DNA of 64,000 nucleotides from Patescibacteria group bacterium (GCA_041649135.1 JBAZNQ010000001.1:445438-509437); one strand, 5' to 3'; counted from the stretch's first letter, positions 4,352 through 29,412 are shown. Notes: generated from the sequence alone by a model not told the origin. A program made the numbers and translations.

Positions 4352-4710
4352 ACCCTTCGGACCTCGGTCACTTTACTCGCCTGCCCGCCCGTAGTCCGGC
4401 GGACGAAGGAGAGTTTTTATTTGGCCCCGTTAGCATTCCTTACTGAAAAACGAAGTTCCTTCTGTTATTTCAGTAGCGTCAGCTCCGGGACGCACCTGTC
4501 TGGCTCTTCTGTAATCCAGTAGATGTCGCCAACATGTGGCTCAACAGCTCGGTTCAGATTGCATCCCCAAGGAGATAATTTGGGACTTTTGAAAGGGAGC
4601 TCGGGCAAGTGGGTCAGTTGTAGAACCCATAGGAGAAAATGAGACAAATGAGACAGTGGCAGAGGGGTGTGTTTCACTATAGATTTTAGTTGGATTTTGT
4701 GACGTAATCA
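4352..4710. repeat. Full composite repeat (Type-1 with a 34-bp insertion, a TGGCTCAACAGCTCGGTTCAG block, and Type-2 GGAGATAAT…CCCATAGGAGAAAATGAGACAAATGAGACAGTGGCAGAGGGG…)
   Basis: Best-preserved copy of the family. The overlapping ORF 4465..4677 (MKHTPLPLSHLSHFLL…) is a translation of the repeat. Confidence 0.75.
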
Positions 4711-4726: not shown

Positions 4727-5497
4727 CTAATCTAGGGCGCCAATTATTGCCTTGAAATACTTCACCAATACAATCAGACTAATCCCAACCAGAAACAGAA
4801 CAGTTTGGTAAATCGTCATACTCAACGATCTTTCTCTGATAAGGTCTGGCGTCAACTCGGCCAATGCAACGTACAGAAACACGCCGGCGGTAAAAGGTGC
4901 TGCCAACGTCAAAGACACCTTGAATAAAACTGGTAATAACAGTGACACACCCGCTCCAACAAACGACATAAATACCGCGAGTACATTAATCCGATTTGCC
5001 AATAGATTACCAACCCCCGCTCGACGCAAAATGACATAATTCGAAATCTCTTGCGGTATTTGATGGATAACTACTGCAATAGTCGTAGCAATCCCGATTT
5101 GTAAACCAGCCACATAACTACTGGCTATCACCAAACCGTCAACAAAGCTTTGGGTGGAAAAGCCGAACATATTACTAACCGCCGCATGATTACGTCGAGA
5201 CATCCGCACTTTGTACTTCAACTCTCGCCAAGTAATAGTCTGCTCTAGCAAAAACATCAATACGACCCCAGCTACAATGGATACCGTTACAGATGTAGTC
5301 CAGCCATCGTGCACAGCTTTCGGCAATAGATAAATCAGCGCATCTCCAATCAGCGCCCCCGCCGCCAACGCCATAAAACAACCTAAAATTCGATTAAGAT
5401 GCTCCCCCTTCTTTGGAACAACTTTAACAATAAAGTTGGCCAGGATTGCCAACAACCCAGTGCTAACCAGTGCGTAGATATAAACCCAAGAGGCCAT
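4727..5497 (-). CDS. zupT: ZIP-family divalent metal (zinc) transporter
   Basis: Multi-TM protein with an HQIPQEISNYVIL motif, resembling the ZIP signature HNxPEGxA. Confidence 0.7.
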   Translation of the reverse strand: MASWVYIYALVSTGLLAILANFIVKVVPKKGEHLNRILGCFMALAAGALIGDALIYLLPKAVHDGWTTSVTVSIVAGVVLMFLLEQTITWRELKYKVRMSRRNHAAVSNMFGFSTQSFVDGLVIASSYVAGLQIGIATTIAVVIHQIPQEISNYVILRRAGVGNLLANRINVLAVFMSFVGAGVSLLLPVLFKVSLTLAAPFTAGVFLYVALAELTPDLIRERSLSMTIYQTVLFLVGISLIVLVKYFKAIIGALD

Positions 5498-5559: not shown

Positions 5560-5640
5560 TGGAGACAAATGAGACAGTGGCAGGGCCTACTGTTTTGGGC
5601 TGGATTTTGGAGGAGTTTTGTAGCCTTGTGATGGGATAGG
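5560..5640. repeat. Type-2 repeat copy (GGAGACAAATGAGACAGTGGCAGGG…TTTTGG)
   Basis: Shares the GAGACAAATGAGACAGTGGCAGG core. Confidence 0.7.
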
Positions 5641-5775
5641 TTGGCAAACGGCTTTCATCAAAACGAGTAGTTTTGTAGCCTGTTCCAGGGCATCCTTCTT
5701 ACTGATTTTAACTCCAAACTCCTTCTCGTAGATTCGCTGGAATTCGGATATTTCTTTATCAGTTAATTGCATCAA
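5587..5775 (-). CDS. Small protein (62 aa), paralog of the 29413..29640 product
   Basis: Shared motif EFxRIYxKEFGVKISKKDALEQATKLLVLM versus EFARLYKNAYGIKLTHEQAESKAKALLNLVIAM. Confidence 0.4.
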   Translation of the reverse strand: MMQLTDKEISEFQRIYEKEFGVKISKKDALEQATKLLVLMKAVCQPIPSQGYKTPPKSSPKQ

Positions 5776-6065
5776 AAGAATCCCAAAGTAATACTTTTCT
5801 ATTATACCCCCGCCTCATAGGTGTTGGACTTAGTATACTTTGTGATACTTTATCATACTTTTATATACTTCCAGAGCGACTTTTTTTGACATTTATTATA
5901 TATGTGTTCTAAAATAATAGTAGAAAACCACAATTAGGTAATTAAGGAAACTAACGAGTTTCTTTTGCTGCACGGGAAACCCCGGACAAAAGCAGAAGCC
6001 AGTCAAGGCTGGCCAAAATGCATTGCCGGGTTTTTATACATATTAGTTAATTGAAGGAGGTCAGC

Positions 6066-6605
6066 ATGAAAGTGGTAATCACGTCAGATATAAAAAACGA
6101 AATTAAAATGCTACAAAGAATGGTCCCGTGGCTACAGCGAGGCAATTTAGAAGAAATCAGTCTCAAGCCAAATCATCCAGCCGTTGTTACCCACTTCCCT
6201 CTGAGCGAGGCGGTTAACAGTGAAACCACCGTTGCCAGGTTAGTCAAAAGAGGTCGAAGACTTTTTCTGGTCATTGATAAGTTAGAGATTAATATGGAAC
6301 TGCAGGAGTTCCAGTCCGACTCTCGTGCCAATATTCTAATGAATTACCTGCTTGAGCAGCGACCCGGAGAAATAATCAACATCCTGGAGTTACCCGATTC
6401 AATTCATGAGATTAGCGGACTGAAACTCAGAGACACTTTCCGAAAGATGCACCACTGGAAAGCATTTGAGAAGTACTTCATGCTCAAAAATACCAAACAA
6501 GATTTTGGGATTAGCAATCAGATATTTTTGACTCCACTAGAGACCAACCAGCTCCTCAAAGCATTTAATATCAAATGGCAAGAACCGGAACAAACAAGTA
6601 AATAA
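6066..6605 (+). CDS. Hypothetical protein
   Basis: ATG with a GGAGG RBS 6 nt upstream. It is the first gene of a plus-strand phage-like block. Confidence 0.5.
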   Translation: MKVVITSDIKNEIKMLQRMVPWLQRGNLEEISLKPNHPAVVTHFPLSEAVNSETTVARLVKRGRRLFLVIDKLEINMELQEFQSDSRANILMNYLLEQRPGEIINILELPDSIHEISGLKLRDTFRKMHHWKAFEKYFMLKNTKQDFGISNQIFLTPLETNQLLKAFNIKWQEPEQTSK

Positions 6606-6696
6606 CAGATGAGCGACAACGGAACATTAAAGAACTCCCGCTTGGGAGTTCTTTTTGATTCTACGATTGGGTCAGTTATATTTTTAAAAAGATCTT

Positions 6697-8022
6697 ATGA
6701 AAAAAGATACTTTGGCCGTTTGCTACCTGCCGGTCTCCGAGCTCAAACCGAGCACATATAATCCCCGTCGTTGGAATGAGTCAGCGATTCAACAGCTGAC
6801 CGACAGCGTCCGTAAGTTTGGGATGGTCGATCCCATTCTCGCAAATTCTGCCCCCGGCAGAGAAAACATTATTATAGGGGGTCATTTCCGCTTGAAGGTG
6901 GCCAAAGACCTCGGCATTAAAGAAGTGCCAGTTGTTTTCGTTAATATCCCCGAGATTGAGCGTGAAAAGGAATTAAACCTTCGCCTCAACCACAACCTTG
7001 GCGCTTGGGACTTAGACCTGTTAGCTGAGTTTGATCCCGCCCTCCTACAAGATGTAGGTTTTTCCAGCGAGGAAATGGACGAGATTACTGGTATCGATGA
7101 AAATCCCGAAACCTTTGACCTCCAAAAAGAGTTAGACAAACTGGGCATCACAGACATCGACATCCAGAAAGGTGACCTATGGAAATTAGGTGACCACTAC
7201 CTTGCTTGTGGCGATTCTACAGATGAAGCACATATCACTGGGCTGGTATGTGAAACCGCTCCATCATTCTGTTTGACCGACCCCCCGTACCTGTTGGACT
7301 ATCTCAAAGGCAAGAAAAAACATGGCAAACCAACTGAAGGGTTTGGCTTTAAACGAGATCGTAAATATCTCGAAACTGACAAACTGGACGACGACTTCAC
7401 CGAGAAATGGATGGCAAATATCGCTAAGGTCGCATCACCTAACTTCTCAATTCTCTGTTATGAAAATTGGAAGAACATTCCGATTATTTGGGGTGAGATG
7501 GCAAAGTACTGGAAGATCAAGAACATGATTGTCTGGCACACCCCCAACCGCAATCAAGGGTTCGCCGCGAAGTATAAGTTTTTCAGCAAGCACGATATCG
7601 CCATGGTCGGGCAAAGCGGTGAACCGACTATGAACTTAGAGCCGGAAGATGAGCTGTTGCAAAACGAATACGAAACGGCGTTGTTTGCCATTCAAGGTAA
7701 ACCCCAATGGGAGGGCTACGAGAAAGGTAAGAAGTACCAACCGACTGACTTCATCGAGTTTAATGTGGCCGACGAGAAAAGTTCTGGCCAAGGGATTATC
7801 TTTGGGGTTAAGCCAATCGAAATCTTAATCCCCTACATCAAGGTGCTGACTAAACGTGGAGATTGGGTAATTGAGCCATTCGGCGGTTCGGGCTCAACTT
7901 TGATCGCTTGTGAAAAACTCGGAAGAAAATGCTACATTTCCGAAAAATCTCCTACATACGCTTGTGTGATTCGGAACAGATGGGAAAAGCTGACCGGGCA
8001 GAAGGGAGTGAAAGTACGATGA
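6697..8022 (+). CDS. ParB-like nuclease N-domain fused to a DNA N6-adenine/N4-cytosine methyltransferase
   Basis: ParB-N motifs in the N-terminal half (GGHFRLKVAKDLG). A DPPY motif (LTDPPYL) and FGGSGST in the C-terminal half. Confidence 0.8.
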   Translation: MKKDTLAVCYLPVSELKPSTYNPRRWNESAIQQLTDSVRKFGMVDPILANSAPGRENIIIGGHFRLKVAKDLGIKEVPVVFVNIPEIEREKELNLRLNHNLGAWDLDLLAEFDPALLQDVGFSSEEMDEITGIDENPETFDLQKELDKLGITDIDIQKGDLWKLGDHYLACGDSTDEAHITGLVCETAPSFCLTDPPYLLDYLKGKKKHGKPTEGFGFKRDRKYLETDKLDDDFTEKWMANIAKVASPNFSILCYENWKNIPIIWGEMAKYWKIKNMIVWHTPNRNQGFAAKYKFFSKHDIAMVGQSGEPTMNLEPEDELLQNEYETALFAIQGKPQWEGYEKGKKYQPTDFIEFNVADEKSSGQGIIFGVKPIEILIPYIKVLTKRGDWVIEPFGGSGSTLIACEKLGRKCYISEKSPTYACVIRNRWEKLTGQKGVKVR

Positions 8023-8435
8023 AAACAATGAGCCAAAAAGAAGAAGTGTTGGAAATTCTCCGTCGAACACCCATCGTGGCCACAGCTTGTCAGAAATGTG
8101 GCATCAGTCGCGCGACCCTTTACCGTTGGAAACAAGAAAGTAAAACCTTCGCTCAGCAAGTGGACAAGGCATTAGCTGAGGGCTGCGACTTGATTAACGA
8201 CCTTGCCGAGTCTCAACTTTTGACGGCGATTAAAAATCAGAATCTCACCAGCATCATGTTCTGGCTCCGCAACAGACATTCGTCCTACGCCGAGAAGTTG
8301 CAGGTGATGGCACAAGTAGAACACAAGAATGCTACGTTGACACCAGCCCAACGAGCAATCATCAAAAAAGCATTCACGCTGGCCGGAATCTATAAGAATA
8401 AATTAATTGGAGGTAAAAATGTCGGATCAAAATGA
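8019..8435 (+). CDS. Phage terminase small subunit-like HTH protein
   Basis: ATGA overlap with the upstream gene. HTH (ATACQKCGISRATLYRWKQ). Sits immediately upstream of the large terminase. Confidence 0.55.
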   Translation: MKTMSQKEEVLEILRRTPIVATACQKCGISRATLYRWKQESKTFAQQVDKALAEGCDLINDLAESQLLTAIKNQNLTSIMFWLRNRHSSYAEKLQVMAQVEHKNATLTPAQRAIIKKAFTLAGIYKNKLIGGKNVGSK

Positions 8436-9960
8436 ACTACAAATTTTAATCAGTCAAATCATTAACAACCAAAAACTGCGAACAGAGGCGACGCGTAAAA
8501 ATCATTTTCTATTTTTCCACACGTACTTGGCTGATCACGTCGAATATTCAACGGCTCCCTTTCAGAAAGAAATGTTCGAACTAACCCAAGATGAAAAGTT
8601 AACATTCCTAGTGATTTGCGCTTTTCGAGGTTCGGCAAAGTCAACCTATATGAGTTTGTCATATCCGCTATGGGCGATTATGGGCGACCAGCAACGCAAG
8701 CACATCCTGATTACCAGTAAAACTCAATCGATGGTTAAACGAATCTTCGATAACCTCCGTAAGGAACTCAATGAAAACGCCTTGTTGAAATCCGACATGG
8801 GTCCTTTCCAGAGCGAACGAACCCAATGGGGTGGCGGTACATTGGAGCTAGAGAAATACGGAGCTCGAATTACTGTGGCATCCGTTGACGAGGGCATTCG
8901 AGGAATTCGACACGGAAAACATCGTCCCGACCTGATTATTGCGGACGATGTAGAGGACTTGGGTTCGGTTAGGACTAGGGAGGGTCGAGATAAAACCTAT
9001 GACTGGTTCAATGGCGACCTAATCCCAGCTGGCAGTAGGAACACTCGGATTATCGTCATTGGGAATTTGCTACACGAAGATTCACTCATTATGCGGTTGA
9101 GAGAAGAGATTAAGACCGGTAAGCGAGATGGCTTATTCAGGTTCTACCCTCTATTTGGGACTAACGGTGATTGTTTATGGCCAGGCAAATACCCCGACCA
9201 GACCAATATTGATGCCGAAAGAAAAAAGTTGGGTGATCCAGCCGCTTGGAGCCGAGAATATCTGCTAAAAATCATTTCGGATTCGGAACGAGCGGTTCAT
9301 CCGGGATGGATACATTACTACGACAAACTCCCACCTCATCGCAGCGAAAACCACAAGACAGATTTACGGTACATTGGCATTGCGGTTGACTTAGCCATCT
9401 CCGAAAAAGCATCGGCTGACTATACCGCCATAGTGTGCGGAGCCGTTTATGGTCGTGGTGAAGATATGAAAATCTATATCTTACCCGATGCGATAAACAA
9501 ACGGATTAATTTCCCCACCGTTAAGCACACCGCCACTAAGCTATGTGATGATTTTAAAGATCAAGGCTATGCCATCAAGTTGTGGTTCGACAATACTTCT
9601 TTTCAGGATGCATTCGGTCAGGACTTAGAGCTTATGGGGATTAAGGCCGAAGGATGCCCCACTCAAGGCAGTGACAAACGGACAAGGTTATCGATGACCA
9701 CTCATTTAATTCAGGAGGGCCGAATACTGTTCCCAAAACAGGGAGCCAGACCGCTCATATTACAGTTAATTGGCTTTGGTGTAGAAAAACACGACGACTT
9801 GGCCGACGCTTATACCATCCTGGCGCTGATGGCGATGAAACATAATAAACCCGACACCAACCCAATCTGTGCAAGATGGGACCGAGGTCCCTCTATAAAG
9901 GAAGATTATCTTCGAGGGTCAGGTGGTAGGGGCGGTTACCCATGGCATAGGATACTCTGA
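8419..9960 (+). CDS. Phage terminase large subunit
   Basis: Walker A FRGSAKST, Walker B LIIADDVED, and a C-terminal RNaseH-like nuclease (AVDLAISEK…DYTAIV; HDDLADAY). GGAGG RBS before ATG 8419. Confidence 0.8.
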   Translation: MSDQNELQILISQIINNQKLRTEATRKNHFLFFHTYLADHVEYSTAPFQKEMFELTQDEKLTFLVICAFRGSAKSTYMSLSYPLWAIMGDQQRKHILITSKTQSMVKRIFDNLRKELNENALLKSDMGPFQSERTQWGGGTLELEKYGARITVASVDEGIRGIRHGKHRPDLIIADDVEDLGSVRTREGRDKTYDWFNGDLIPAGSRNTRIIVIGNLLHEDSLIMRLREEIKTGKRDGLFRFYPLFGTNGDCLWPGKYPDQTNIDAERKKLGDPAAWSREYLLKIISDSERAVHPGWIHYYDKLPPHRSENHKTDLRYIGIAVDLAISEKASADYTAIVCGAVYGRGEDMKIYILPDAINKRINFPTVKHTATKLCDDFKDQGYAIKLWFDNTSFQDAFGQDLELMGIKAEGCPTQGSDKRTRLSMTTHLIQEGRILFPKQGARPLILQLIGFGVEKHDDLADAYTILALMAMKHNKPDTNPICARWDRGPSIKEDYLRGSGGRGGYPWHRIL

Positions 9961-9996
9961 TATATTCTATACTGCAGAGGTTTAATAAAACAACGT

Positions 9997-10071
9997 TGGT
10001 GCCCCCGAAAGGATTCGAACCTTTTCCAACTGCGTAGAGGGCAGTTATGCTATCCATTGCACCACGGGGGC
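9997..10071 (-). tRNA. tRNA, probably Arg (anticodon TCT), with an unusual C at position 33
   Basis: Manual fold: acceptor GCCCCCG/CGGGGGC, T-loop GGTTCGAATCC, encoded CCA. The anticodon loop CCTCTAC gives TCT; the isotype is uncertain. Confidence 0.6.
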
Positions 10072-10147
10072 TGGTGCCGAGAGAGAGAGTCGAACCTTCA
10101 ACCTGCTGCATAGGAGGCAGCTGCTCTATCCATTGAGCTATCTCGGC
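10072..10147 (-). tRNA. tRNA-Arg (CCT)
   Basis: Manual fold: acceptor GCCGAGA/TCTCGGC, anticodon stem GCTGC/GCAGC, loop CTCCTAT, encoded CCA. Confidence 0.7.
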
Positions 10148-10162
10148 ATACACAAAAAACAC

Positions 10163-10237
10163 TGGTGCCGAGGGAAGGAATTGAACCTCCTACGCAGAGC
10201 TTTTCAAGCTCTCGCTCTACCAATGAGCTACCTCGGC
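10163..10237 (-). tRNA. tRNA-Phe (GAA)
   Basis: Manual fold: acceptor GCCGAGG/CCTCGGC, anticodon loop TTGAAAA, T-loop TTCAATT, encoded CCA. Confidence 0.75.
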
Positions 10238-10506
10238 ATACAAAAAACACAACCATTCCGTCTCGTCCGAATTCGGACCTGACTTGGTTGTGTTTGCTTA
10301 TTGTCTTCTAAATCGTTTCACTACTCCTATTCTACTCCCCCAAGACTGTTGCACAAGAGACCGGAAAGGATGGATTGGCAACGCCAACCCCGTCCTATGC
10401 TCTTTGCGAACCTAGGGCTATACGTTCGTCTCTGGCCAGCCAGAGACCCCGAGGGCTGTACTACTTTGAATCTACACCGCCGAACTCTGTTAGACAAGGT
10501 ATCAGC

Positions 10507-11991
10507 CTATTTAATGTCAGATAAAAACTGGAAGATCTTAACCATCGCATAAGTGTCTAACTCACAGTATTTGGTTAGGTCTTTAAGAATCTTATCTTTC
10601 TCCTCGGCTCTTTTCCCATCTAAGACAGCTTCCATCCATAACCTTTGGGCGGCTCCACCGGCATGAATATCTAAATCCTTATATGAAAGTTCAGGGATAA
10701 GAACAGGCAATACCTGCTTGATTGAAGCACTCCCAAAGAAGTCCTTGTGAATGTAGGAACCAGTTGAGAAAGGAATCATCAAATCAACAATCCGATCATT
10801 CAGATCTTTATAAAAAGTTTTGAATTCTGGGAGTAGAAGTCCCAAAAACTCATTACAAGTCTTTTCAAAACCCTCAAACCAAACCAAGACCGTACCGCTA
10901 TCACCGATGTGCGACTTGAGCGATTCCGAGATTGGTTGTGCCGGGTTGCTGTTCTCGTGATGCAGATATTCAAAATGCTTTACCTCGCCTCCGGGCTTCT
11001 CGATGACGTGAAGAGAGTATTGAAACGGTAATTGTTTATACGGCCCTAACCCATCAAAGTACGGCACTACACTAGACAGGGTTTCGTAATCGAGGAAATA
11101 CAGGGGGTATTTTAGCTCAGACAAGAACTGCTTGATTTTTGGCTTGTCCACTAATACCTCGTCACACTTGGTTGCCTGAACTTGGCCTTGTTGTTTTACA
11201 CTAAGAGCAAAATCTTCCGGAATGTCTTTTATCTGCTTAATGCCCAATGTTTCAAGTTTGCCAATCTTACTCGCACCAGGAGCACAAAGATCATAAATAC
11301 TATATTCCTCTACCTCGGCAAGGGTCTTGAAGATCCCGAGCCAGTCATTGAAAGCCCCTAGCTTAGTCAAAGAAGGTGAAATATCTGGACACTCTTTAGA
11401 ATTCATCACCGCCAGAGCTTGTTTGATATTCTCTCTGGTAGTCTCCCGTAGTGCTTTGACTTGGTCAGTAACTTCAGTCATCTTGGCCAGATCTTTGGCC
11501 GTAACTTCTCCATTTCTAACATATTCATTGTTTACATGAACAACATAAATCTTGTTCACCTTGTAACCACAGTCTTCTAGCACTACCATCTGAAATGCCA
11601 AATCTGGCTCATGCTCTGGCTTAGCATGAGTGCTGGATTTAATCTCATAAAGATCGAACTCATTGTCCTTAACCCGAACCAACACATCGCAGATACAAGT
11701 AATGTCACCAGCTTCAAAGCGACCCTGCATAATAGTGATCGCCCCAGACTCTATCACTTGTTTCGTCTCGGCAGTTAACCTTGCGTATGCCTTATAGTCT
11801 CCTCGATCATATTCTAGCTTTGTGGCATCAGGGAAAAGCTGTTCGGCATATGTCTCGAACAGGAAACCAGCATCAAAAATCGCCTGTGTGTCTTCATCTA
11901 CAGGGGGTAATTTATCTTTGGCGTGTTTCTTGAGCCAGAGCCAGGCCGGATGGCGGAGAAACAACATATAATCTGACTTTGAGAGTTGCAT
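10507..11991 (-). CDS. DUF2779-like protein: N-terminal PD-(D/E)xK (RecB/Cas4-like) nuclease plus C-terminal RNaseH-like exonuclease domain
   Basis: D…EIK motif (CDVLVRV…DLYEIK) and a C-terminal FLDYETL… region. Confidence 0.55.
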   Translation of the reverse strand: MQLSKSDYMLFLRHPAWLWLKKHAKDKLPPVDEDTQAIFDAGFLFETYAEQLFPDATKLEYDRGDYKAYARLTAETKQVIESGAITIMQGRFEAGDITCICDVLVRVKDNEFDLYEIKSSTHAKPEHEPDLAFQMVVLEDCGYKVNKIYVVHVNNEYVRNGEVTAKDLAKMTEVTDQVKALRETTRENIKQALAVMNSKECPDISPSLTKLGAFNDWLGIFKTLAEVEEYSIYDLCAPGASKIGKLETLGIKQIKDIPEDFALSVKQQGQVQATKCDEVLVDKPKIKQFLSELKYPLYFLDYETLSSVVPYFDGLGPYKQLPFQYSLHVIEKPGGEVKHFEYLHHENSNPAQPISESLKSHIGDSGTVLVWFEGFEKTCNEFLGLLLPEFKTFYKDLNDRIVDLMIPFSTGSYIHKDFFGSASIKQVLPVLIPELSYKDLDIHAGGAAQRLWMEAVLDGKRAEEKDKILKDLTKYCELDTYAMVKIFQFLSDIK

Positions 11992-12085
11992 AAATTTATT
12001 TTGAACTATTTTTTACAATCTCTATCTCCTCTGGGGTAAGGTTATAGAGCCGATAAACCATCTGATTAATTTGATTTTCGTATTC

Positions 12086-14353
12086 TTAATTCAGGTTAAG
12101 AATTTGAAACTCTTTTAGTGAAGGGTTGTAAGAATATTTTACGCCTCTATTAATCTTCCAGCCGTTTGGTCCGTCTTGTACGACAATCCCTCCATCAAAG
12201 CCCTTCTTGCCTTTAAGCCATTTTTGGAGCGCTTCGGCTTTATATCTCGTGTCACCACTTTCTGCAGTTAAACCCGCTTTAGTATCAAAGATACAAACAG
12301 CGGCTTTTGTCTGTACTATCCAGTCAGGATAAAATAGTTTTTCTTTATTTTCGTCTGTGTTGTAGTAAGAAATTGAAAAATATTCGCTCCCAACATCGCC
12401 ATTCTTATACCACCAAATAACATTTTTGGATGATTCGAGAAATTTAATAAACGCCTCCTCATTGATCCGCCCAGAGTATGCTTTTTCTATCCAAAATGGT
12501 TCCATTGCTGATTTCTTGACTGGTAATGACTCATATTGATCAGTAAAAAATAGAGTACCACGAGGGATATCAATATGCTCGATGCGTCGTGCGCGAGAAG
12601 ATCGCCTATTCACTTCTTGCTCCCGAACGGGACGATATGTCGAAAGTGAATCGCCGATAAGTGGTGCAAGTACCCCTGCCGGGCTAACGAGATCATTTAC
12701 GATAATTCGATAGACGTCAGCTCGAGAGATACCAAGCTTATTCATTAACCAAACATTTAAGGCCGTTTTTAGTTTTCCCCATGATCGTTCAGGGGCGAAT
12801 TTTTTGTTTTCGTCAACCTGGTTGGCGATTATCTTAAAACAAAGAAGGTTATAGAGTCGCTCAAGGTCATGCCGTGACATTTCTTGATCATGACTTCCGC
12901 CCTCCGCAAAAAGTTCTTTTGTGAAATTATCATAGTCATCTATTTCTACGCCAACAATTAAACCGTTTGTTACTTTTGGTTTCAGGTTCAATCTCTTAAC
13001 ATCAAATTTTTTATCAGCAACCTGTTTAAAAGTTTCTTGGAATGAGTCTCCCAAGTCGTTGTAGTCAGTGCGAGTCATAAAAATCGACTCTAGTTGAATT
13101 GGCTTTACATTCTTTTTACGATAACTGGCATTCGGTGAAGGACGATTTTCCGTTTTTGATTTTGCATACTCAGCAAGTACTTCGTTTCTCTTATAGTTAG
13201 TATAGAGATAACCCAAATTCAACTCTGGTTTAGGAAAGTGATAACCAAATGGCATACGTAAGATTCGTCCCACGGTTTGAATCGCAAAAGTGGGATTTTT
13301 AATTTCCCTGAACATCACCAGTACACTTGCTCTGGGGCAGTCCCAACCAGTAGCGGCGGCCTGTTTAAAAAGCAGAAATGCTACTGGAGAGTCGCTCTTT
13401 TCTAAATCCTCAAGGTTCTCCTTTTCCCTTGAAAGCCAAACGGCAATCTCATCGTTTTTTAGACCCTTACGCTTCAGATACTCCGAAACTATTGCCTGTT
13501 TCGTTGTCCCACCTGCTTCTTTAGACGCCTGATCATCGTTTGGTAACTGAATAAGAACGAGCGGATTGACCTTTATATCCAGCTCTTTGTATAAAGCAAT
13601 AATCTCTTTGCGCTTATTGTAGGCAAGTTCTAGGAGTAATTCGTCCTGATCGAGATTTTTGATTGTTTGTTGCTCTAAATCCTCTTCGGTTTGAAAAACA
13701 ATCTTTTCCTTAATAAGACCTGCTTCAATAACGTCTAACCTCGGCACATCAACAAACTTATATATCTCTCCTAATTTTGGTTCAAACAATGGTGTAGCTG
13801 AAACTCGAAGAGTAATTTTGGGTTTTACTAAGGCAATTACCTCATCCGCCAAAGCTGATCGAGTCCCCAACTGCTCTTCATCTATAATCAATACAATTTT
13901 TATTCCTGCCTCATGACTTTCGTTAATAAAATTATCAAAAGTGAGTCCAGTTTCATTTTCACGACGCAACTTTCGGCTTGCTTTGTCAGTGGCTTTGATC
14001 TTCTGCCAATTTATGAAAAATACATTATTTCTCTGTAACCTTCCGCGAGATAGGTCATTCAGATCAATCAAATCCAACTCTGAAGCTCCACCGTAATACT
14101 CAAAAAGTTTCTTTTTGCTTTGCTCATACGAATCCTCGCTGAAAGAAAACCAAATAAACGAGACGTCGTTACCCTCAAACCGAGGATCACTAACAATATC
14201 CCGTAAAAACTGTGCGAGCATGATTGTTTTGCCAGAACCAGTTGGTGACTTAAAAACCAATGGAATATTCTGATTTGGATTCTTCCACAACTCAAGAAAG
14301 TCATTCTTGAGATTAGATATCGCAGCTTCCTGAAAAGGTTTTAATACCAACAT
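12086..14353 (-). CDS. res: Type III restriction enzyme Res subunit (SF2 helicase-nuclease)
   Basis: Walker A SPTGSGKT and a DEEQ box. 755 aa, immediately downstream of the mod gene. Confidence 0.8.
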   Translation of the reverse strand: MLVLKPFQEAAISNLKNDFLELWKNPNQNIPLVFKSPTGSGKTIMLAQFLRDIVSDPRFEGNDVSFIWFSFSEDSYEQSKKKLFEYYGGASELDLIDLNDLSRGRLQRNNVFFINWQKIKATDKASRKLRRENETGLTFDNFINESHEAGIKIVLIIDEEQLGTRSALADEVIALVKPKITLRVSATPLFEPKLGEIYKFVDVPRLDVIEAGLIKEKIVFQTEEDLEQQTIKNLDQDELLLELAYNKRKEIIALYKELDIKVNPLVLIQLPNDDQASKEAGGTTKQAIVSEYLKRKGLKNDEIAVWLSREKENLEDLEKSDSPVAFLLFKQAAATGWDCPRASVLVMFREIKNPTFAIQTVGRILRMPFGYHFPKPELNLGYLYTNYKRNEVLAEYAKSKTENRPSPNASYRKKNVKPIQLESIFMTRTDYNDLGDSFQETFKQVADKKFDVKRLNLKPKVTNGLIVGVEIDDYDNFTKELFAEGGSHDQEMSRHDLERLYNLLCFKIIANQVDENKKFAPERSWGKLKTALNVWLMNKLGISRADVYRIIVNDLVSPAGVLAPLIGDSLSTYRPVREQEVNRRSSRARRIEHIDIPRGTLFFTDQYESLPVKKSAMEPFWIEKAYSGRINEEAFIKFLESSKNVIWWYKNGDVGSEYFSISYYNTDENKEKLFYPDWIVQTKAAVCIFDTKAGLTAESGDTRYKAEALQKWLKGKKGFDGGIVVQDGPNGWKINRGVKYSYNPSLKEFQILNLN

Positions 14354-14357
14354 AGAC

Positions 14358-16121
14358 TTATAGACGGTTTAACTCTTTGTATACCTCAAGAATCGGCTCA
14401 GGGATATCCTCGACTCGGATATTTTCCGAAGAATATTCACCTTTATATTCATTTTTACCCCAGCTAAAAATGTATAAAGCAACCGGCATATCTTTCTTCC
14501 CCAAACTTTTGACTAACTCCTCCAGCTTTGATTTATCTTCCTGAAAATAAATTGCAGACATCTGTTCATGTCCTCGAAATATCTGCCACCAATCGTTCCT
14601 CTCGATTTCATTAAGTGTATCTTCTCGCACCGCAATCATCTCTCCGGCTTGATAGGTAATGCGAATTTTTGCCTCATCCGGCACTTTGTGGATTTGTTCA
14701 ATATCCACGAGGTCAGTTTGGTAATACCAGAAGTTGCTCGGAATACCTAATACTTTATCGTCATTTTTATTCTTATATCCATTAATGACAGCATTGATAC
14801 GGGGGTAGCAAACTGATTCGGCAATGCCCCCATTGCCGTCATTATTATTTTCGTTATTAGTACAGAGTATAAATTTACGGTTACCACCATCCGCCTTATT
14901 CATCTCTAAAACAGCATGCCCAGTTGTCCCTGAGCCAGCAAAAAAGTCTAAAATATTTGCGTTTGGACGTGCACCTACAACAGCAAAAATACAGTCATAT
15001 ACAGTATAAAGTGACTTGGGGAAATCAAAATCACAATCTGGGATTATCTCACGCAGAAGCTTTGTTCCATACTCACCTGCATCATATTTCTTATCCGTCC
15101 AAACGGTTTTGTATGTTCCGTAATCTTTTGCAATCATTATCTGGATCATTCCGCCGTGCGATTCCTTAACCTGAAGGATATCTTTTATTCCCTCAACACT
15201 CTGTCTTGCATATCGCCACTTTCGTTCAACGCCCTTTTCGTCAATTGGCCAAACATAAACACTACCATCTTTTTTCTTTTCGTTTGCCGACTTCGGATGA
15301 ACATCGTCAGATACAACATTACCGAAGCCAATAATCTTTCCACTTTTTATGATCAATGGGTAGAAACAATTTCTTGCATCTGTACGCTTAGACTCATTGC
15401 CCCAATTACGCAAATTGGAAATATAGACCTCATCCTTAGCAAGAGAACGATCGCCGATGGTCTTTTTATTCTTCGGAACAACAAAAATTGCATATTCATG
15501 AGTATAGGAAAAGTTAGTGCCTTGGACACCCTTGGGATTATGAATAATGGTTACCGTATGTTGTTCGTGTGTTGGGAACAATTGCTCAATCAGCACTCCC
15601 AAATGTGCCTGCTCATTATCATCAATCGCACAAATCATTACACCATCATCTTTCAATAAATCTTTTGCCAAGCTGAGGCGATGGCGCATAAATGAGAGCC
15701 ACTTACTGTGTCTGTATTCGTCATCCCGATCCACATAATCATTGTTGTATTTCCAGTTTTTTGCGCCTGTGTTATACGGCGGATCAATGTAGATGAGATC
15801 AATATTCTTTTTGTGGGTGTAGTTGAGAACCGACAGTGCGAGATAGTTATCACCCTCAATCATCAAGTTATTCGGATACGCCTCGTCCAAATTAAGGCGG
15901 TTTTTAACAACTTCTTTCAGAACGGGGACTTTGATTTTTGATTGCTCAACAACATCTTCCATCTTGTCTTCAAAAACCAGCCCAAGATTGTTCTTCTTGA
16001 GTTTTTTGATTTGAGCTTGTAAATCCGCCACCTCTTTTTGTAAATCTTTTCCAGACATAATAATCACCCTTAAGCCATTCGACTCTAGCTCTATTATGGC
16101 TTCTTGCGAAGCTTTTTCCAA
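14358..16121 (-). CDS. mod: Type III R-M Mod subunit (N6-adenine DNA methyltransferase)
   Basis: DLIYIDPPYNTG (motif IV) and FFAGSGTTGHA (motif I). Confidence 0.85.
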   Translation of the reverse strand: MEKASQEAIIELESNGLRVIIMSGKDLQKEVADLQAQIKKLKKNNLGLVFEDKMEDVVEQSKIKVPVLKEVVKNRLNLDEAYPNNLMIEGDNYLALSVLNYTHKKNIDLIYIDPPYNTGAKNWKYNNDYVDRDDEYRHSKWLSFMRHRLSLAKDLLKDDGVMICAIDDNEQAHLGVLIEQLFPTHEQHTVTIIHNPKGVQGTNFSYTHEYAIFVVPKNKKTIGDRSLAKDEVYISNLRNWGNESKRTDARNCFYPLIIKSGKIIGFGNVVSDDVHPKSANEKKKDGSVYVWPIDEKGVERKWRYARQSVEGIKDILQVKESHGGMIQIMIAKDYGTYKTVWTDKKYDAGEYGTKLLREIIPDCDFDFPKSLYTVYDCIFAVVGARPNANILDFFAGSGTTGHAVLEMNKADGGNRKFILCTNNENNNDGNGGIAESVCYPRINAVINGYKNKNDDKVLGIPSNFWYYQTDLVDIEQIHKVPDEAKIRITYQAGEMIAVREDTLNEIERNDWWQIFRGHEQMSAIYFQEDKSKLEELVKSLGKKDMPVALYIFSWGKNEYKGEYSSENIRVEDIPEPILEVYKELNRL

Positions 16122-16200
16122 ATCTGATTTTGTCTGGACTTCGCCACCCCTTCGGGCATCCTTGTCCTTGATATAGCCCTATAGACAAATGGAGAAAAAT

Positions 16201-17556
16201 ATGGCGAAAAATGAAGCAATTCTGGGAGCTCCCGAGGGGTCTTCGGAGGCCCTTGAGCAACCACAAGGAGCCAAGTACTGTCTCTATGCCCGGAAGTCCT
16301 CAGAGCAGGATGAACGGCAGGCCCTTTCCATAGATAGCCAAATTAAGGAGATGTTGGCGATGGCCGAAAGGGACGGGATAGAGATCGTGGAGACTATCAA
16401 GGAAAGCCACTCAGCCAAGGACTCAGGCCAAAGACCTGCCTTTACCGAGCTTCTACTGAGAATCCGAGAAGGTGATTTCAATGGCATTCTGACATGGGCT
16501 CCAGACCGATTAAGCCGAAATGCCGGAGACCTCGGCTCCCTTGTCGACCTTATGGACCAAGGGCTTCTGCATGAAATCAGAACTCATGGTCAGATATTCA
16601 GAAACTCCCCTAACGAGAAGTTCCTCTTGATGATTCTCTGTAGCCAAGCCAAATTGGAAAATGACAACAAAGGCGTAAATGTTAAGCGAGGGATGCGAAC
16701 CAAATGTGAAATGGGCTGGCGACCGGGAGTCGCCCCCATAGGATATCTCAACAACTACGCAGATAACACTATTACGGTAGACCCGGAAAGAGCTCCCATC
16801 ATCAAAGAAATATTCAATAAGGTGGCCAAGCAGGGAGATTCAGGGCGCGACATTTTCAACTGGATCAACAATGAGACTTCCTTTATTACTAGAGGGGGCA
16901 AAAAAATGCCCTTGAGCACAATTTTTCTGATTCTCAAAAATAGCTTCTACTACGGAGAGTACACATACGGCGAGGGAACCTACCACGGCAAACATGAGCC
17001 ACTTATCACAAAAGAGCTATTTGATGAGGTGCAAGTCAGAATTTCCAAACCCGCCCATGGCCGTCATGGCGAGAAATGTTTCGCCTTCGCCAGAATGATG
17101 ACCTGTGGCCAATGCGGAGCCGGAATTACTGCCGAAGAAAAATTCAAGCGATTAAAGAATGGCGATATGATACGCCATATTTACTACCACTGTACCGACG
17201 GCAAAAGACTCGGCTGTAAACAACCCTATGTTAGGGAGGCAGATCTCATCGAACAATTTGTAGAAATAGTAGACAAGCTAACCTTAGACAGGATAGGGAT
17301 GAAGGATAGGTTACAAGAAGAAATAGACCGCTACAACAAGTTTACGCAAGGCGTGTTGGGGATGGACCCTTCCACTCAGAAGATGCCTCGAGTAGATCTA
17401 AAAATGTACGCCAAGTACATCCTGCGAGAAGGTCGCAACGAAGAAAAGAGAGAGGTGCTGAGCCACATCCAAAACAAAGTTGTACTGAATCAAGGGAAAC
17501 TAAAACTACAGGATAATAAGCAAGCCAACATGCCGGAAGTAACCCGCGTCAACTAA
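16201..17556 (+). CDS. Large serine recombinase (resolvase/invertase N-domain, recombinase domain, zinc ribbon)
   Basis: YARKSS catalytic serine motif, DRLSRN, and a CGQCG…YYHC zinc ribbon. GGAG RBS before ATG 16201. Paralog of 29847..31451. Confidence 0.85.
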   Translation: MAKNEAILGAPEGSSEALEQPQGAKYCLYARKSSEQDERQALSIDSQIKEMLAMAERDGIEIVETIKESHSAKDSGQRPAFTELLLRIREGDFNGILTWAPDRLSRNAGDLGSLVDLMDQGLLHEIRTHGQIFRNSPNEKFLLMILCSQAKLENDNKGVNVKRGMRTKCEMGWRPGVAPIGYLNNYADNTITVDPERAPIIKEIFNKVAKQGDSGRDIFNWINNETSFITRGGKKMPLSTIFLILKNSFYYGEYTYGEGTYHGKHEPLITKELFDEVQVRISKPAHGRHGEKCFAFARMMTCGQCGAGITAEEKFKRLKNGDMIRHIYYHCTDGKRLGCKQPYVREADLIEQFVEIVDKLTLDRIGMKDRLQEEIDRYNKFTQGVLGMDPSTQKMPRVDLKMYAKYILREGRNEEKREVLSHIQNKVVLNQGKLKLQDNKQANMPEVTRVN

Positions 17557-18669: not shown

Positions 18670-18930
18670 GAAGTAGGCGCTTTAAGGCACCTCGGTCATT
18701 TGACTCGTTTTTGTTTGGCTCAACAGCTCGGTCTCGGTTGGTTTTCCACGCTAGTCCTCCATAGCGCTATCTATATCAGAAGAGGCTAATGACCTATTTC
18801 TGATGAGATAAAGCGTAGGATGGAAGGAGATAATCTAGAGGTTTTGAAAGGGTGTTTAGGGGGACAGGTTTTGTGTAACACCCATAGGAGAAAATGAGAC
18901 AAATGCGACAGTACTTTGGATGATTTTTAG
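18670..18930. repeat. Composite repeat (full Type-1 plus Type-2)
   Basis: The Type-1 core ends with …TGGCTCAACAGCTCGGT. Type-2 contains GGAGATAAT…CCCATAGGAGAAAATGAGACAAATGCGACAG. Confidence 0.75.
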
Positions 18931-18985: not shown

Positions 18986-19804
18986 TCATTCTGCAATTAA
19001 TTTTTTAGAAACTGAACTATTCACCTTTTCTACGTACAACCTATCATTCTCTACTCTCAAATCGTTATAGTCCCCAAGATCCTGTCTAAAAGTTTTTTCT
19101 ATTTTATTGCTTTCTAAATCCCAAATAAACAAATAACCGTCGGACCAACGTGCACCAACTGGCGTCCCCCAAAAAGCCATTTTTGTATTATTGCTAAAAA
19201 ATAATACCGGCCAGTAATCTGATCTTCCTCCCATACTTATCAGCTGAACGCTTAAGATCGGCTCAATCGTCATCCCGAGTTCGGCGCTCATTATTGTATT
19301 CCCTTGCCAGCTTCTTTTAAATATCTTATCTCCGGAGATATAAAAATATCCGCTCTCGTCCGGTGCCACGGCTACAATGTTGCCTCCGATATGTATTTCT
19401 TCTATCGTGTTTTCGCCCTCTGATTTTGGCGATCGATGCACAATATAACCGCTTTCCATTGATGAAAAATTCGGATCGCTATATGCAATCAGGGCAAAGT
19501 CCTCTCCGCTATGGATGAGGCGGATATCATTGATTTCGCCTTTCAATTTGTATCGAAAATTTGGCGCATCATTTTTTCTGTCATGAATATTGATGACCGT
19601 AGTTTTCTCTTTGTTCCAAAGCCAAGGAGTATATTGATAGGCACTCAAACTCAATCCGGCACCTGTGTCGTTTGCTACTTCAGTGATATTTGGGAAATAT
19701 AGTTTTTCTGCCACTACAAAGCTGAATACTCCTGCGCCAATAATGACGGAGAAGATAATAATCGCAATTATCTTTAAAGCCTTCTTAGCGATTAAAGTCA
19801 TCAT
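18986..19804 (-). CDS. Membrane-anchored hypothetical protein (N-terminal TM, beta-rich ectodomain)
   Basis: The ORF track starts at a TTG inside the Type-2 repeat. The more likely start is the MMTLIAKK… Met preceded by a TATAAT box. Confidence 0.4.
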   Translation of the reverse strand: MMTLIAKKALKIIAIIIFSVIIGAGVFSFVVAEKLYFPNITEVANDTGAGLSLSAYQYTPWLWNKEKTTVINIHDRKNDAPNFRYKLKGEINDIRLIHSGEDFALIAYSDPNFSSMESGYIVHRSPKSEGENTIEEIHIGGNIVAVAPDESGYFYISGDKIFKRSWQGNTIMSAELGMTIEPILSVQLISMGGRSDYWPVLFFSNNTKMAFWGTPVGARWSDGYLFIWDLESNKIEKTFRQDLGDYNDLRVENDRLYVEKVNSSVSKKLIAE

Positions 19805-19829
19805 CTTGATAATATTATAGATTGTCAGG

Positions 19830-19870
19830 AGAAAATGAGACAAATGCGACGGTGGCAGGGGGGTATCAAA
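19830..19870. repeat. Type-2 repeat copy (CAGGAGAAAATGAGACAAATGCGACGGTGGCAGGGGGG)
   Basis: Fills the 22-bp gap between the ccdA stop and the next gene. Confidence 0.7.
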
Positions 19871-27389: not shown

Positions 27390-27893
27390 TTACTGGGCGG
27401 TGTTGGTTTTGCACCACTCTTCACATTCAGCTTCCAGTCTACGCTTGCGGTGGTCATACTCTACGGTATAGGCAGTCAACAATACAAAATACCCCTTATT
27501 TCTAGGTGCCAAAACAACCACATAGCTCCAATCTGAAAGTGCAATGCAAACATGAAGCTTATCCTTACGTTTTACTTCCCAAACCTTCAGACTAGCCGAA
27601 TTTTCAATCATCGGCCTGACCCAACACACTCTCTCGCAACGTCGTAAATCTGGGATCCTTGTTGCCTCCGTCTTGCCTTCTGAAACTAAGTGCCAGAACG
27701 TAATACCCTTTCCATTAAGGGGTGGAGCAAAACGACTAACGACTGGCAGACCCCTAAAAAGAGGCTTACTTGCAACAAAATCCTTGCAGTAATGAGCGTA
27801 AATAGCATCAATGTATTTATCCCAATTACCGCTATGTTCTCCGAGCTCAACAATCGCAGGCAACCAATCAATTGTCGCAACACCATCAGCCAT
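27390..27893 (-). CDS. Hypothetical protein with a possible PD-(D/E)xK nuclease motif
   Basis: IPDLRR…(21 aa)…WEVKRK fits PD…(D/E)xK. The call is weak. Confidence 0.35.
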   Translation of the reverse strand: MADGVATIDWLPAIVELGEHSGNWDKYIDAIYAHYCKDFVASKPLFRGLPVVSRFAPPLNGKGITFWHLVSEGKTEATRIPDLRRCERVCWVRPMIENSASLKVWEVKRKDKLHVCIALSDWSYVVVLAPRNKGYFVLLTAYTVEYDHRKRRLEAECEEWCKTNTAQ

Positions 27894-28584
27894 TTCGTGC
27901 CTCCCACCGCAACAAATTCAGCTTGTCTTCTCGAACCAGAGTGGTGGCCTTCAGACTATAACCAGAACGTTGTTTTATTTTAGCTATGATATCAAGTTTT
28001 GCCTGACTCGCCTGCAAACCACGTGCTGTGTATGATACTGCGCCCAATAAAAAGTCAGCCAATTGAAGAATCTCACTTTCGTGAGAGCGCATATTTTGAA
28101 TCTTTGCTACCACTTTCCTAGAGATATCCCCCAAGCTAGTGGCAAGCACATCATGCAGCTTCTTCACCTTATCCGCACTACGACTATCTTTGATGTCTAA
28201 GTATATGTCGTATTTATTTTCAGGATGCAAAATGACCCATAGCATCTCGTAGTACATTTTGTAATACCAATCGTCATGGGTCTGATTGTGCGCCTCATGA
28301 TTCAACACTCCCTTATCAGGTATCACCAGCGCCCTAAAGTGAAGATCGGAATTGTCGAAAAAATAATTCACCAAATCAAGATAAAAGGCTTCTTTGGCTG
28401 GGGAAACCTTTGACCACTTGATTTCAAAGCTACCACTAAGGCCATGCTCTTTTTTAATTTCCCGAATTCTTTGCGAAATCGGACGAACTTTTTCTATGGG
28501 GCACCATATGGCGCCCAGCGACATAGCCAGTTGTTTGTCATTTTCCAAGTGACAACTTTCGTCACAGTAAACATTAAAATCCAT
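27886..28584 (-). CDS. DUF3800-family protein
   Basis: N-terminal FNVYCDESCH motif typical of DUF3800. Confidence 0.55.
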   Translation of the reverse strand: MDFNVYCDESCHLENDKQLAMSLGAIWCPIEKVRPISQRIREIKKEHGLSGSFEIKWSKVSPAKEAFYLDLVNYFFDNSDLHFRALVIPDKGVLNHEAHNQTHDDWYYKMYYEMLWVILHPENKYDIYLDIKDSRSADKVKKLHDVLATSLGDISRKVVAKIQNMRSHESEILQLADFLLGAVSYTARGLQASQAKLDIIAKIKQRSGYSLKATTLVREDKLNLLRWEARNG

Positions 28585-28680
28585 ACTTCCTCCTGATAGC
28601 TAAAAGTGGGTGAAAACAACACCCTACATCATTTTACACCCAAATTAGGTTGCAAATAGACCATCCCATCTATCTTCTCT

Positions 28681-28860
28681 ATCGTGTCGGAAAACTCTTG
28701 ATTTTCCGACTGCTTCGTGGCGCAGTATAAAAAATCAGCTATCTGCTCGTTCCAAAAAACTCTTTTTTATCGTGTCAGGAAACTCCTTTTGCCGTGTCGG
28801 AAAATTACCCAACATGCCCTCGTTCAGGCAAAAGCGACCTTTTACCGTGTCAATAAATCA
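28681..28860. promoter_or_regulatory. Iteron/operator cluster: four direct repeats of (A/G)(T/C)CGTGTC(G/A)GAAAA. The first is a perfect palindrome, GTCGGAAAA-n7-TTTTCCGAC.
   Basis: Copies at 28681, 28769, 28791 and 28844. Confidence 0.6.
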
Positions 28861-28872
28861 TCGTTTTCTACC

Positions 28873-29043
28873 GCCCACCGTACATATCAACCCAAAAGAC
28901 ATACCCAGCCACAATCACAAAAATCACTAACGTAAAAATTCCAGAGGCCACTTCCCCAGCATACAAATACAGCAACACACCACTAAACAAGAATAGGGCA
29001 ATGGACATAATGAGACACAGAGGATAAATCTTTGGATCCATGT
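28873..29043 (-). CDS. Possible small hydrophobic protein (57 aa), below the ORF-track cutoff
   Basis: Manual translation: MDPKIYPLCLIMSIALFLFSGVLLYLYAGEVASGIFTLVIFVIVAGYVFWVDMYGGR. Confidence 0.25.
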
Positions 29044-29068
29044 TGATTAGGAGATAACTTATATCACA

Positions 29069-29230: not shown

Positions 29231-29412
29231 CCACATTTTACCTTGTGCGGACTTTTTTATCCACATTTTTATTTTCGCCCCATAAGATAAAGATATATTC
29301 CAATCGTTGCTCTGGAAGCTGATTTCGCACTAGACAGCCTGTTGCGAATCGATACAATGAAACTAGTTTCGACAGTTCACTTGTTCATTTAGCAATACAA
29401 CCAGTTCGCGGC

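Follow-up and report, generated by a model that had tools for sequence, protein, structure and literature searches.

For the phage-inducible chromosomal islands (PICIs), SatelliteFinder takes as the core an integrase, a regulator (AlpA, Stl or MerR), a primase-replicase, a capsid-morphogenesis gene and terS, and among described satellite families only the capsid-forming PICIs (cfPICIs) count terL, beside terS, among their core genes. Satellites are reported almost only in Proteobacteria and Firmicutes, and none in Patescibacteria. Here we analyse 64,000 nt of chromosomal DNA (the window) from a metagenome-assembled genome (MAG) of Patescibacteria, the Candidate Phyla Radiation (CPR), in which a terminase block is the core of an island of ~11-14 kb. 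The block encodes a fusion of a ParB domain with a DNA methyltransferase, a small terminase (TerS) and a large terminase (TerL), is followed by cargo, and the island is closed by a large serine recombinase (LSR). We read the locus, giving this about an even chance, as a helper-dependent, satellite-like integrative island that would package itself with its own terminase, a phage supplying the capsids and tails.

Among the known systems, PICIs and the Staphylococcus aureus pathogenicity islands (SaPIs) resemble the island in size (~10-17 kb), in the integrase, in a TerS of their own, in the absence of virion and lysis genes, and in their accessory, often defence, cargo. As in a PICI, the integrase of the window island is at one end and the island is chromosomal, and terS is present with tail, holin, portal and connector genes absent; the integrase is an LSR instead of the usual tyrosine integrase. 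The analogy with PICIs drawn in a first-pass annotation of the window thus holds for an island with its own TerS and fails elsewhere, since the island also has TerL and the ParB-methylase, integrates by an LSR, lacks a recognisable replication or capsid-redirection module (no primase-replicase, no AlpA or Stl, no cpm or ppi), and has a host in Patescibacteria. Helper-capsid hijacking as in PICIs and SaPIs is the best-fitting model for the spread of the island, which is known here from its genes, and from these we infer packaging, helper dependence and transfer of island DNA. Packaging operon I of SaPIs is controlled by LexA, to which a LexA/S24-like repressor gene beside ~25 of the related islands forms a parallel. 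The cfPICIs share terL and terS with the island, however they carry capsid, portal, protease and head-tail connector or adaptor genes, and of these the window has none, nor has any island locus.

Three further systems are worth comparing. The staphylococcal cassette chromosome (SCC) type cassettes are cargo islands moved by LSRs without terminase genes; likened by description, they agree with the island as LSR-moved chromosomal cargo and differ in the missing terminase. The PICI-like elements (PLEs) of Vibrio cholerae, compared in sequence at the level of the LSR family, are like the island in LSR integration, in the lack of structural genes and in anti-phage cargo (PMC6002521), and unlike it in having their own replication initiator, in having no TerS/TerL pair (some have a TerS homologue), and in being limited to Vibrio. 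The virion-encapsidated integrative mobile elements (VEIMEs) and elements of the PICMI type are likewise very small and integrative, some with a serine recombinase, a TerS homologue and restriction-modification (R-M) or Abi cargo (PMC9618062); unlike the island, they are not reported with TerL and a ParB-methylase. These small elements are packaged as concatemers without capsid remodelling (PMC9618062), which is a possible model for how islands of 5.5-17 kb might travel in capsids holding 30-50 kb. The encapsidation of VEIMEs was shown directly from virus particles, whereas that of the island is a prediction from its genes. The combination of TerS, TerL, ParB-methylase and LSR sets the island apart from PICIs, PLEs and VEIMEs, and no published description of this element was found in open-access full texts and bioRxiv, absence there being no proof.

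The window was annotated by Pfam and PHROG scans of ~60 open reading frames (ORFs), with tRNAs called by ARAGORN and Rfam and defence models by PADLOC. The co-oriented block of ParB-methyltransferase, TerS and TerL in the first-pass annotation is borne out by the Pfam and PHROG matches, and forms an overlapping operon on the plus strand at 6697-9960. Its first gene (6697-8022, +) encodes the fusion of ParB_N (PF02195, 3.3e-10) with an N6-N4 DNA methyltransferase (PF01555, 1.1e-19; phrog_498, 1.2e-74); it also matches the PADLOC MTase_II and orphan MTase models, and in the PDB it is related to ParB/Spo0J N-terminal domains and CcrM/RsrI-type methylases. Its predicted product is the orphan methylase of the packaging operon. 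An ATGA at 8019-8022 contains both the methylase stop and the TerS start. The TerS-like helix-turn-helix (HTH) protein of 138 aa (8019-8435, +) looks like a small terminase in its PF13022 match above cut-off (4.6e-07), its matches to five PHROG TerS families (with phrog_4044 at 2.5e-09, phrog_309 and phrog_4102), its HTH and its position directly upstream of TerL, and it is matched at 2.7e-07 by a hidden Markov model (HMM) built from the TerS of related phages. TerL, with 513 aa (8419-9960, +; phrog_38, 5.2e-77), starts at an ATG at 8419 that is preceded by a GGAGG Shine-Dalgarno sequence, and its first 17 nt lie within TerS. The ATPase motifs FRGSAKST (Walker A, K78) and DLIIADDVED (Walker B, D180, D181, E183) are invariant in the 128 island and 19 phage TerLs compared, and the nuclease residues D328, D464 and D467 with the coupling motif GNLLH are invariant in 128/128 island TerLs and likewise in the phage TerLs. 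The PDB TerL 8dgc aligns to residues 68-224 of the window TerL, and Terminase_6C matches residues 325-470 weakly, under the Pfam cut-off. Both the ATPase and the nuclease domain are predicted to be intact.

Based on the comparison of the window with the relatives L088, L001 or L005 (L-numbers are the fetched relative loci, L001 being from a Kazan MAG), dN/dS is 0.035-0.046 for the methylase, 0.065-0.09 for TerS and 0.036-0.05 for TerL, at a dS of at least 1.3 with synonymous sites near saturation. The comparisons show a packaging backbone that is intact, conserved and under strong purifying selection. The amino acid identity between the window and L001 is uneven, 94% for the methylase, 85% for TerS, 58% for TerL and 94% for the DUF2779 protein of the cargo, and such mosaicism is typical of recombining mobile elements. 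On the DNA level, the 5' two thirds of TerL (8419-9960) are 77% identical to L001 10001-11623 and the nuclease-domain part is beyond blastn detection; this looks like a recombinational swap inside TerL, because the nuclease part has diverged while the flanking methylase, DUF2779 protein and recombinase keep 90-94% protein identity.

As the first-pass annotation had stated, the window has no capsid, portal or tail gene in the scans of its ~60 ORFs, and no lysis gene is found there either; HMMs for the portal, protease, capsid and minor-head proteins of related phages have no match in the six-frame translation of all 64 kb. Structural genes lying just outside the block, in a complete prophage, had been named as the finding that would speak against a satellite. 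None is found within the 64 kb and the 10 kb to its left, the DNA covered by our inspection, the latter being occupied by housekeeping genes (FtsH, TilS, RluA-like, DivIC and Dus), and the satellite reading survives. Among the relatives, the structural HMMs match in no island locus, no cluster of portal or capsid size is common to the loci, and structural genes are absent within ±10 kb of more than 120 island loci.

On the whole, the island belongs to a large family. In a degenerate-pattern scan with one genome per species, at least 492 species-representative genomes are found to encode a relative of TerL, and the best 80 of these genomes have nearly all CPR labels, namely Paceibacteria, Saccharibacteria, Woese-, Roizman-, Dojka-, Berkel-, Peri-, Doudna- and Komeilibacteria, Kazan and WWE3; the window TerL is itself 100% identical to an NCBI protein from a Patescibacteria MAG. 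A HMMER search against 1.84 billion representatives gives 385 clusters of TerL relatives at 50% identity (E<=1e-30). More than 120 loci, spread over many CPR lineages, repeat the order ParB-methylase, in some cases a second methylase, TerS, TerL, optional cargo and LSR. The ParB-methylase stands beside TerL in 82 of 88 loci in the first set and in 147 of 168 in the full set. In the 168 loci for which ORFs were called and clustered, a TerS-like cluster of 144 aa is present in at least 101, a count that is too low, overlapping ORFs having been dropped; the LSR is found in 90, with truncated LSR fragments at the edge of 14 more. It follows TerL on the same strand in 81 loci, at a distance of up to 200 bp in 37, of 200-1500 bp in 20, and farther, with cargo between, in 24. 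The second methylase often lies between the ParB-methylase and TerS, and the minimal relatives consist of only four genes, methylase, TerS, TerL and recombinase, without a recognisable replication module.

The cargo is variable and is placed either in the stretch from TerL to the recombinase or ahead of the methylase; in the family as a whole it comprises Type I, II and III R-M systems, MmeI-like proteins with SNF2/PLD, Shedu SduA, DruA with NurA/HerA-like proteins, ThsB-TIR, AbiV, and diversity-generating retroelements (DGRs; reverse transcriptase and bAvd). The DGR genes (RVT_1 and bAvd) are repeatedly found at the left side of the island (L001 434-1838; L005 586-846; L173 814-2268 and 20811-21458). 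A copper-resistance cluster with a CsoR-like repressor, cupredoxin, DUF305, CopA P-type ATPase, multicopper oxidase and DsbA-like protein stands beside the recombinase in at least nine loci (L016, L030, L033, L040, L043, L068, L072, L073 and L086); conjugative (type IV secretion) cargo in the relatives was considered and ruled out, the cluster being these copper-resistance genes. As for regulation, a gene with LexA_DNA_bind and Peptidase_S24 is divergent from the operon in 25 loci, and a 73-aa XRE gene (17 loci) or an HTH_17 gene follows TerL in relatives, which suggests a repressor switch in the relatives, possibly an SOS-responsive one. No LexA/S24-like, AlpA, Stl or MerR regulator is recognised among the island genes of the window, where ORFs of 62 and 179 aa have no annotation. 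Two islands occur on one contig in L121/L123 and in L146. Some islands have tandem TerL paralogues, which fall in two separate subclades (L051, L097, L100, L101, L104 and L106), and some TerL homologues of ~700 aa (P0128, P0057, P0130 and P0131) have a C-terminal extension that by eye resembles a second nuclease domain. Many island MAGs of one co-assembly project, including a 1.61-Mb chromosome (OZ246394.1), carry unverified labels of Gammaproteobacteria or Bdellovibrionales (among them L009, L013, L014, L027, L030, L033, L036 and L038); either these labels are unreliable or the family reaches beyond CPR.

Real phages with a related terminase are found in IMG/VR. The 24 contigs whose TerLs are 34-43% identical to that of the window have ordinary late operons, in which TerL is followed by virion genes of one of two types: portal (PF04860 Phage_portal with Mu F), protease and HK97 capsid, or SPP1-type portal, minor head protein, scaffold and SU10 capsid. 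The ParB-methylase is directly upstream in 10 of the 24, and one of them, L149, has the triad in the order of the window with identities of 34% (methylase), 27% (TerS) and 37% (TerL). In a neighbour-joining tree of 152 TerLs, 128 of them island-type, the island and phage clades are separate; the island clade is sister to TerLs from phages in which ParB-methylase, TerS and TerL precede portal, protease and capsid. The island core likely descends from the packaging module of an uncultivated phage group, because of the homologous triad in phage late operons and of the TerL clades. These uncultivated tailed phages (L130-L167, e.g. L149, L153 and L160) share the order of the triad, with 34-43% identity to the window in the methylase, 27% in TerS and 37-43% in TerL; unlike the island, they have portal, protease, HK97 or SU10 capsid and late genes after TerL, and no LSR there. 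They are likely the ancestors and/or the helpers of the islands. Islands and phage-type contigs come from the same samples, for example 3300029288 (L006 and L149) and 3300025323 (L002, L120 and L160). The TerLs of cultured phages reach at most 27% identity (Helicobacter and Pelagibacter phages), which leaves the islands without a known cultured helper or ancestor. Of the 80 IMG/VR 'viral' contigs matched by this TerL, about 50 are islands without virion genes (L088-L129, L132, L134, L135, L137, L138 and L145-L147); they are probably misclassified as viruses, and therefore the CPR virus counts and virus-host links would be inflated.

The unit in the window is larger than first thought. An extent of 5587-10237 had been proposed, and this core is real, yet it is only part of the unit, as the conserved block runs on through 10507-17556 and the conserved backbone spans about 5.56 kb to 17.56 kb. 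The cargo lies on the minus strand and begins with a DUF2779 protein with a Cas4-like PD-(D/E)xK nuclease in its N-terminal part (10507-11991, -; PF11074 3e-36, Cas_Cas4 3.1e-04, PADLOC Cas4 models), which has 92-94% amino acid identity to L088 and L001 and a dN/dS of 0.024-0.033. It is followed by the Res subunit (12086-14353, -; PF04851 ResIII, Helicase_C, PADLOC REase_III 7.6e-16; GC 0.39) and the Mod subunit (14358-16121, -; PF01555 1.9e-25, PADLOC MTase_III 6.3e-68) of a Type III R-M system, adjacent and co-oriented as such a system requires. The GC content increases from the R-M cargo (0.39-0.42) to the packaging genes (0.455) and the housekeeping genes (0.477). The LSR at 16189-17556 (+) is of the integrase type (Resolvase, Recombinase and Zn_ribbon_recom; phrog_95 'integrase', 5.2e-66) and has 90-92% amino acid identity to the truncated recombinases at the edges of L001 and L088. 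These two relatives have the same gene order: the 179-aa ORF, methylase, TerS, TerL, tRNA-Arg(TCT), tRNA-Phe, DUF2779, PIF1 helicase, Res, a 204-aa ORF, Mod and LSR. In L005 and L006 the order is methylase, TerS, TerL, PIF1 helicase, PD-(D/E)xK nuclease, Res, Mod and LSR, without tRNAs.

The limits of the island are less sharp. A conserved non-coding block of ~125 nt has a left copy at 4533-4662 (+; 95% identical to L001 3705-3834) and an imperfect right copy at 18716-18912 (+; repeat families D2, D7 and D18, and alignments), which are the candidate left and right limits. The two copies are in the same register, 14,255 nt apart, with a repeat length of ~125-200 nt; copies of the block also flank the island in L010, and in L012 the block sits just inside the left tRNA-derived repeat. 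These flanking direct repeats may mark the island ends. The core of the block, GAGACAAATGAGACAGT, has four copies in the window (4533-4662, 5562-5621, 18716-18912 and 19837-19853) against 0.01 expected by chance, and each block copy opens a tiny ORF, MRQMRQWQ... A ZIP transporter gene (4727-5497) and a gene for 285 aa (18986-19843) each lie between two copies, with spacings of 921 and 941 nt, which has the look of cassette insertion because, in place of the copy, ZIP and copy of the window, the Kazan relative carries a single copy. As RNA, the ~125-nt repeat has no Rfam match and no conserved fold, and as the template or variable repeat of a DGR it was rejected, its mismatches being not adenine-specific on inspection.

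How such islands integrate is indicated by the relatives. In 47 loci the sequence runs on for at least 3 kb past the LSR; in 17 of these the closest tRNA within that distance is encoded on the minus strand, and in no case on the plus strand. The 3' end of the minus-strand tRNA, mostly tRNA-Ser or tRNA-Gln, faces the LSR. The islands of L012 (14.1 kb), L046 (16.6 kb) and L069 (15.8 kb) are bordered by direct repeats copied from a tRNA 3' end, with lengths of 20, 17 and 15 nt, respectively, and the LSR of L012 is intact. Outside the backbone the flanks differ among relatives; in L169, for example, the island starts right after the block rpoA-rplQ-rplM-rpsI-secE-nusG-rpmG. An empty-site search with the exact flanking proteins returned only other assemblies of the same arrangement.

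For a helper-dependent island the following course can be proposed. The island would reside in the chromosome, integrated by its serine recombinase, until induction switches the operon on, for which the S24 repressor in ~25 relatives hints at SOS control. The methylase would then modify the island DNA, TerS would bind a pac site of the island, and TerL would cut the DNA and pump it into procapsids of a co-infecting or co-resident CPR phage with a portal on which it can dock. The island would move as a transducing particle, possibly with adjacent DNA (in-situ headful), and re-integrate through its recombinase. Several observations weigh against this reading. Known satellites normally carry a replication module; none is recognisable in the minimal islands, and among the island genes of the window Pfam, PHROG and PADLOC detect neither a primase nor a replicase domain. 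Genes that would redirect capsid size were not found either, and the source genome has no identified helper phage. Excised, circular or concatemeric forms were not seen, and terminal direct repeats are present in none of the fetched loci. The window LSR has no tRNA adjoining it, and the window has no clean att repeats, no tRNA-derived repeat of at least 13 nt being found there. If the embedded tRNA-Phe and tRNA-Arg genes are the only copies of the genome, excision would be costly. Several island-bearing MAGs bear the unverified non-CPR labels mentioned above. Finally, the same neighbourhood (ZIP ... tRNA-Asn-rpoD-dnaG) is found in the window and L010, and L171 also lies near rpoD-dnaG; since the three islands are within a few kb of rpoD-dnaG, long vertical residence is indicated in at least this lineage. 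The missing replicon and this long residence are the main counter-arguments.

The other explanations differ in what they make of the same facts. In one that we consider unlikely, the module has been domesticated and is retained by the host, where it would cut or mis-package invading concatemers or titrate procapsids, the methylase serving self-protection and the LSR only moving defence cargo. It would account well for the almost constant embedding among defence genes, for strong selection over very long times, for the shared locus of the window, L010 and L171, and for the lack of a replication module; the tandem TerL duplications and the TerLs with an extra nuclease-like domain are a pattern also of arms-race genes. 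However, we know of no precedent for a full TerS and TerL pair as an immunity system, and no PADLOC model matches the TerS or TerL of the window. The co-transcription with an integrase-type LSR, the tRNA-side integration and the tRNA-derived repeats are moreover hallmarks of mobile elements, and the retention of the full motor (Walker A and B, coupling motif and nuclease) fits real packaging better. Quite improbable, in our estimate, is that the block is the packaging locus of a split or dispersed system like a gene transfer agent (GTA), its genes for capsid, portal and tail lying at other sites of this small genome. Dispersed GTA loci exist in Alphaproteobacteria, and the inspected 64 kb and 10 kb are part of a contig of at least 521 kb; against this stand the absence of structural genes around more than 120 island loci, the tiny size of CPR genomes, in which prophages are reported to be rare, and the integrase and tRNA att sites, unexpected for a domesticated GTA.

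A decayed prophage, the structural genes deleted and the survivors neutral or kept only for the methylase, had been put forward in the first-pass annotation beside a satellite-like element. This would agree with the triad at the beginning of the late operon in related phages and with the many such loci that stand in IMG/VR as viral contigs. Yet the same reduced architecture, with the LSR at the operon end, recurs in more than 120 loci of many CPR classes, the ORFs are all intact, the catalytic residues are kept in 128/128 TerLs, dN/dS is 0.03-0.09, and the island TerLs form one clade instead of being scattered among phage TerLs. Independent decay is rejected on these grounds, since recurrent architecture, intact ORFs, low dN/dS and a single TerL clade are unlike random decay, and we regard a remnant as highly improbable. 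Between the two proposals, the satellite-like element is favoured for its reduced gene set shared by so many loci, its intact ORFs and its invariant catalytic residues.

The three tRNAs behind TerL call for a separate explanation. Their identities as tRNA-Arg(TCT) (9997-10071, -), tRNA-Arg(CCT) (10072-10147, -) and tRNA-Phe(GAA) (10163-10237, -) are confirmed by ARAGORN and Rfam; all three are on the minus strand, convergent with TerL and not co-oriented with it. The pair of Arg(TCT) and Phe(GAA) between TerL and cargo is found only in the window, L001-3 and L088. Among 81 scored loci running from ParB-methylase through TerL to LSR, only the window has an internal tRNA and the other 80 have none, and phage-type contigs have at most one, unrelated, tRNA. 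A phage origin, with the tRNAs as cargo that supplements AGA/AGG (and Phe) decoding for the element, is a suggestion that we find decidedly unlikely. The Arg(TCT) and Phe(GAA) pair does accompany the island in three relatives with TerL identities of 58-85%, and AGA and AGG are mildly enriched, making up 29% of Arg codons in the packaging genes and 34% in the cargo, compared with 21% in ten housekeeping genes. The codon-usage check that the first-pass annotation proposed thus gives a difference too small for a codon-supplement role, and Phe codons are abundant in all gene sets. The cell needs the embedded tRNAs anyway, given the heavy use of AGA, AGG and Phe codons in its housekeeping genes; the tRNAs run antisense to the module, internal tRNAs are limited to one sublineage, and in other members of the family the tRNAs lie outside the island and serve as targets of its integration. 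Most likely the three are functional cellular tRNA genes embedded in this island sublineage, and their orientation resembles that of the att-side tRNA elsewhere in the family.

The 5' flank of tRNA-Phe (10238-10370, -; palindrome I21) is itself conserved, and contains a terminator-like nested hairpin with a T-run, downstream of the DUF2779 gene. The tRNA-Phe with ~130 nt of this flank is about 92-95% identical in the window, L001 and L088, compared with 77-84% for coding DNA, and a metagenome scan with the flank, aimed at relatives that keep the tRNAs and lack the terminase genes, returned the Kazan genome alone. The hairpin consists of ACACAACCA...GTCCGAATTCGGAC...TGGTTGTGT, followed by the T-run, and could be the terminator of the DUF2779 gene or something more.

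It is of interest to consider what such islands mean for CPR, for which very few phages are described, a single one by the account of PMC12366544. For gene exchange among the tiny CPR genomes, a conserved island with a motor and a recombinase and without virion genes offers a concrete, testable route for the transfer of defence and copper-resistance genes. A wider proposal, to which we give somewhat less than even odds, is that these islands are satellites spread CPR-wide, the first proposed in CPR, without capsid genes or a replication module, with their own TerS and TerL and ParB-methylase and an LSR beside tRNAs, the first type with a whole motor and no shell, and that they are a main vehicle of defence and metal resistance in ultra-small episymbiotic bacteria. 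If true, the range of hijacking strategies would be extended by a satellite that brings TerL and no capsid of its own. The packaging operon common to islands and real phages also couples a methylase with a ParB domain to the terminase, a component so far unstudied.

Two small ORFs complete the left side of the island. The 179-aa ORF directly upstream of the methylase (6066-6605, +), with a hairpin and T-run after it, has no Pfam, PHROG or PADLOC match, and its AF2 model (pLDDT 69) has no fold match; only seven homologues are found in 5.8 billion proteins, and all those with known context adjoin a ParB-methylase, immediately upstream of it. The 62-aa ORF at 5587-5775 (-), found in the ORF list and without Pfam or PADLOC match, is conserved: the block 5562-5772 is 88% identical to L001 3813-4023 and is kept in L005 and L010 upstream of the terminase modules.

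The remaining genes of the window include RpoD, DnaG, S6, EF-P, NusA, Clp ATPase, DnaE, LeuRS and RNase HII. In the window (29730-33744), L010 (20701-21457) and L171 (18583-21506) the island region lies just upstream of rpoD-dnaG, with tRNA-Asn between in the window and L010, which suggests that the rpoD-dnaG neighbourhood is a long-lived integration hot spot. The window has a second LSR (29730-31451; 37% identity to the first), which shares 42 nt with the 3' end of tRNA-Asn (31410-31484, -); its neighbours are a 'replication protein' of phrog_16230 (27390-27893) and a DUF3800 protein (27886-28584). The region 27390-31484 probably represents a small element of its own that has entered tRNA-Asn and stands in tandem with the terminase island.

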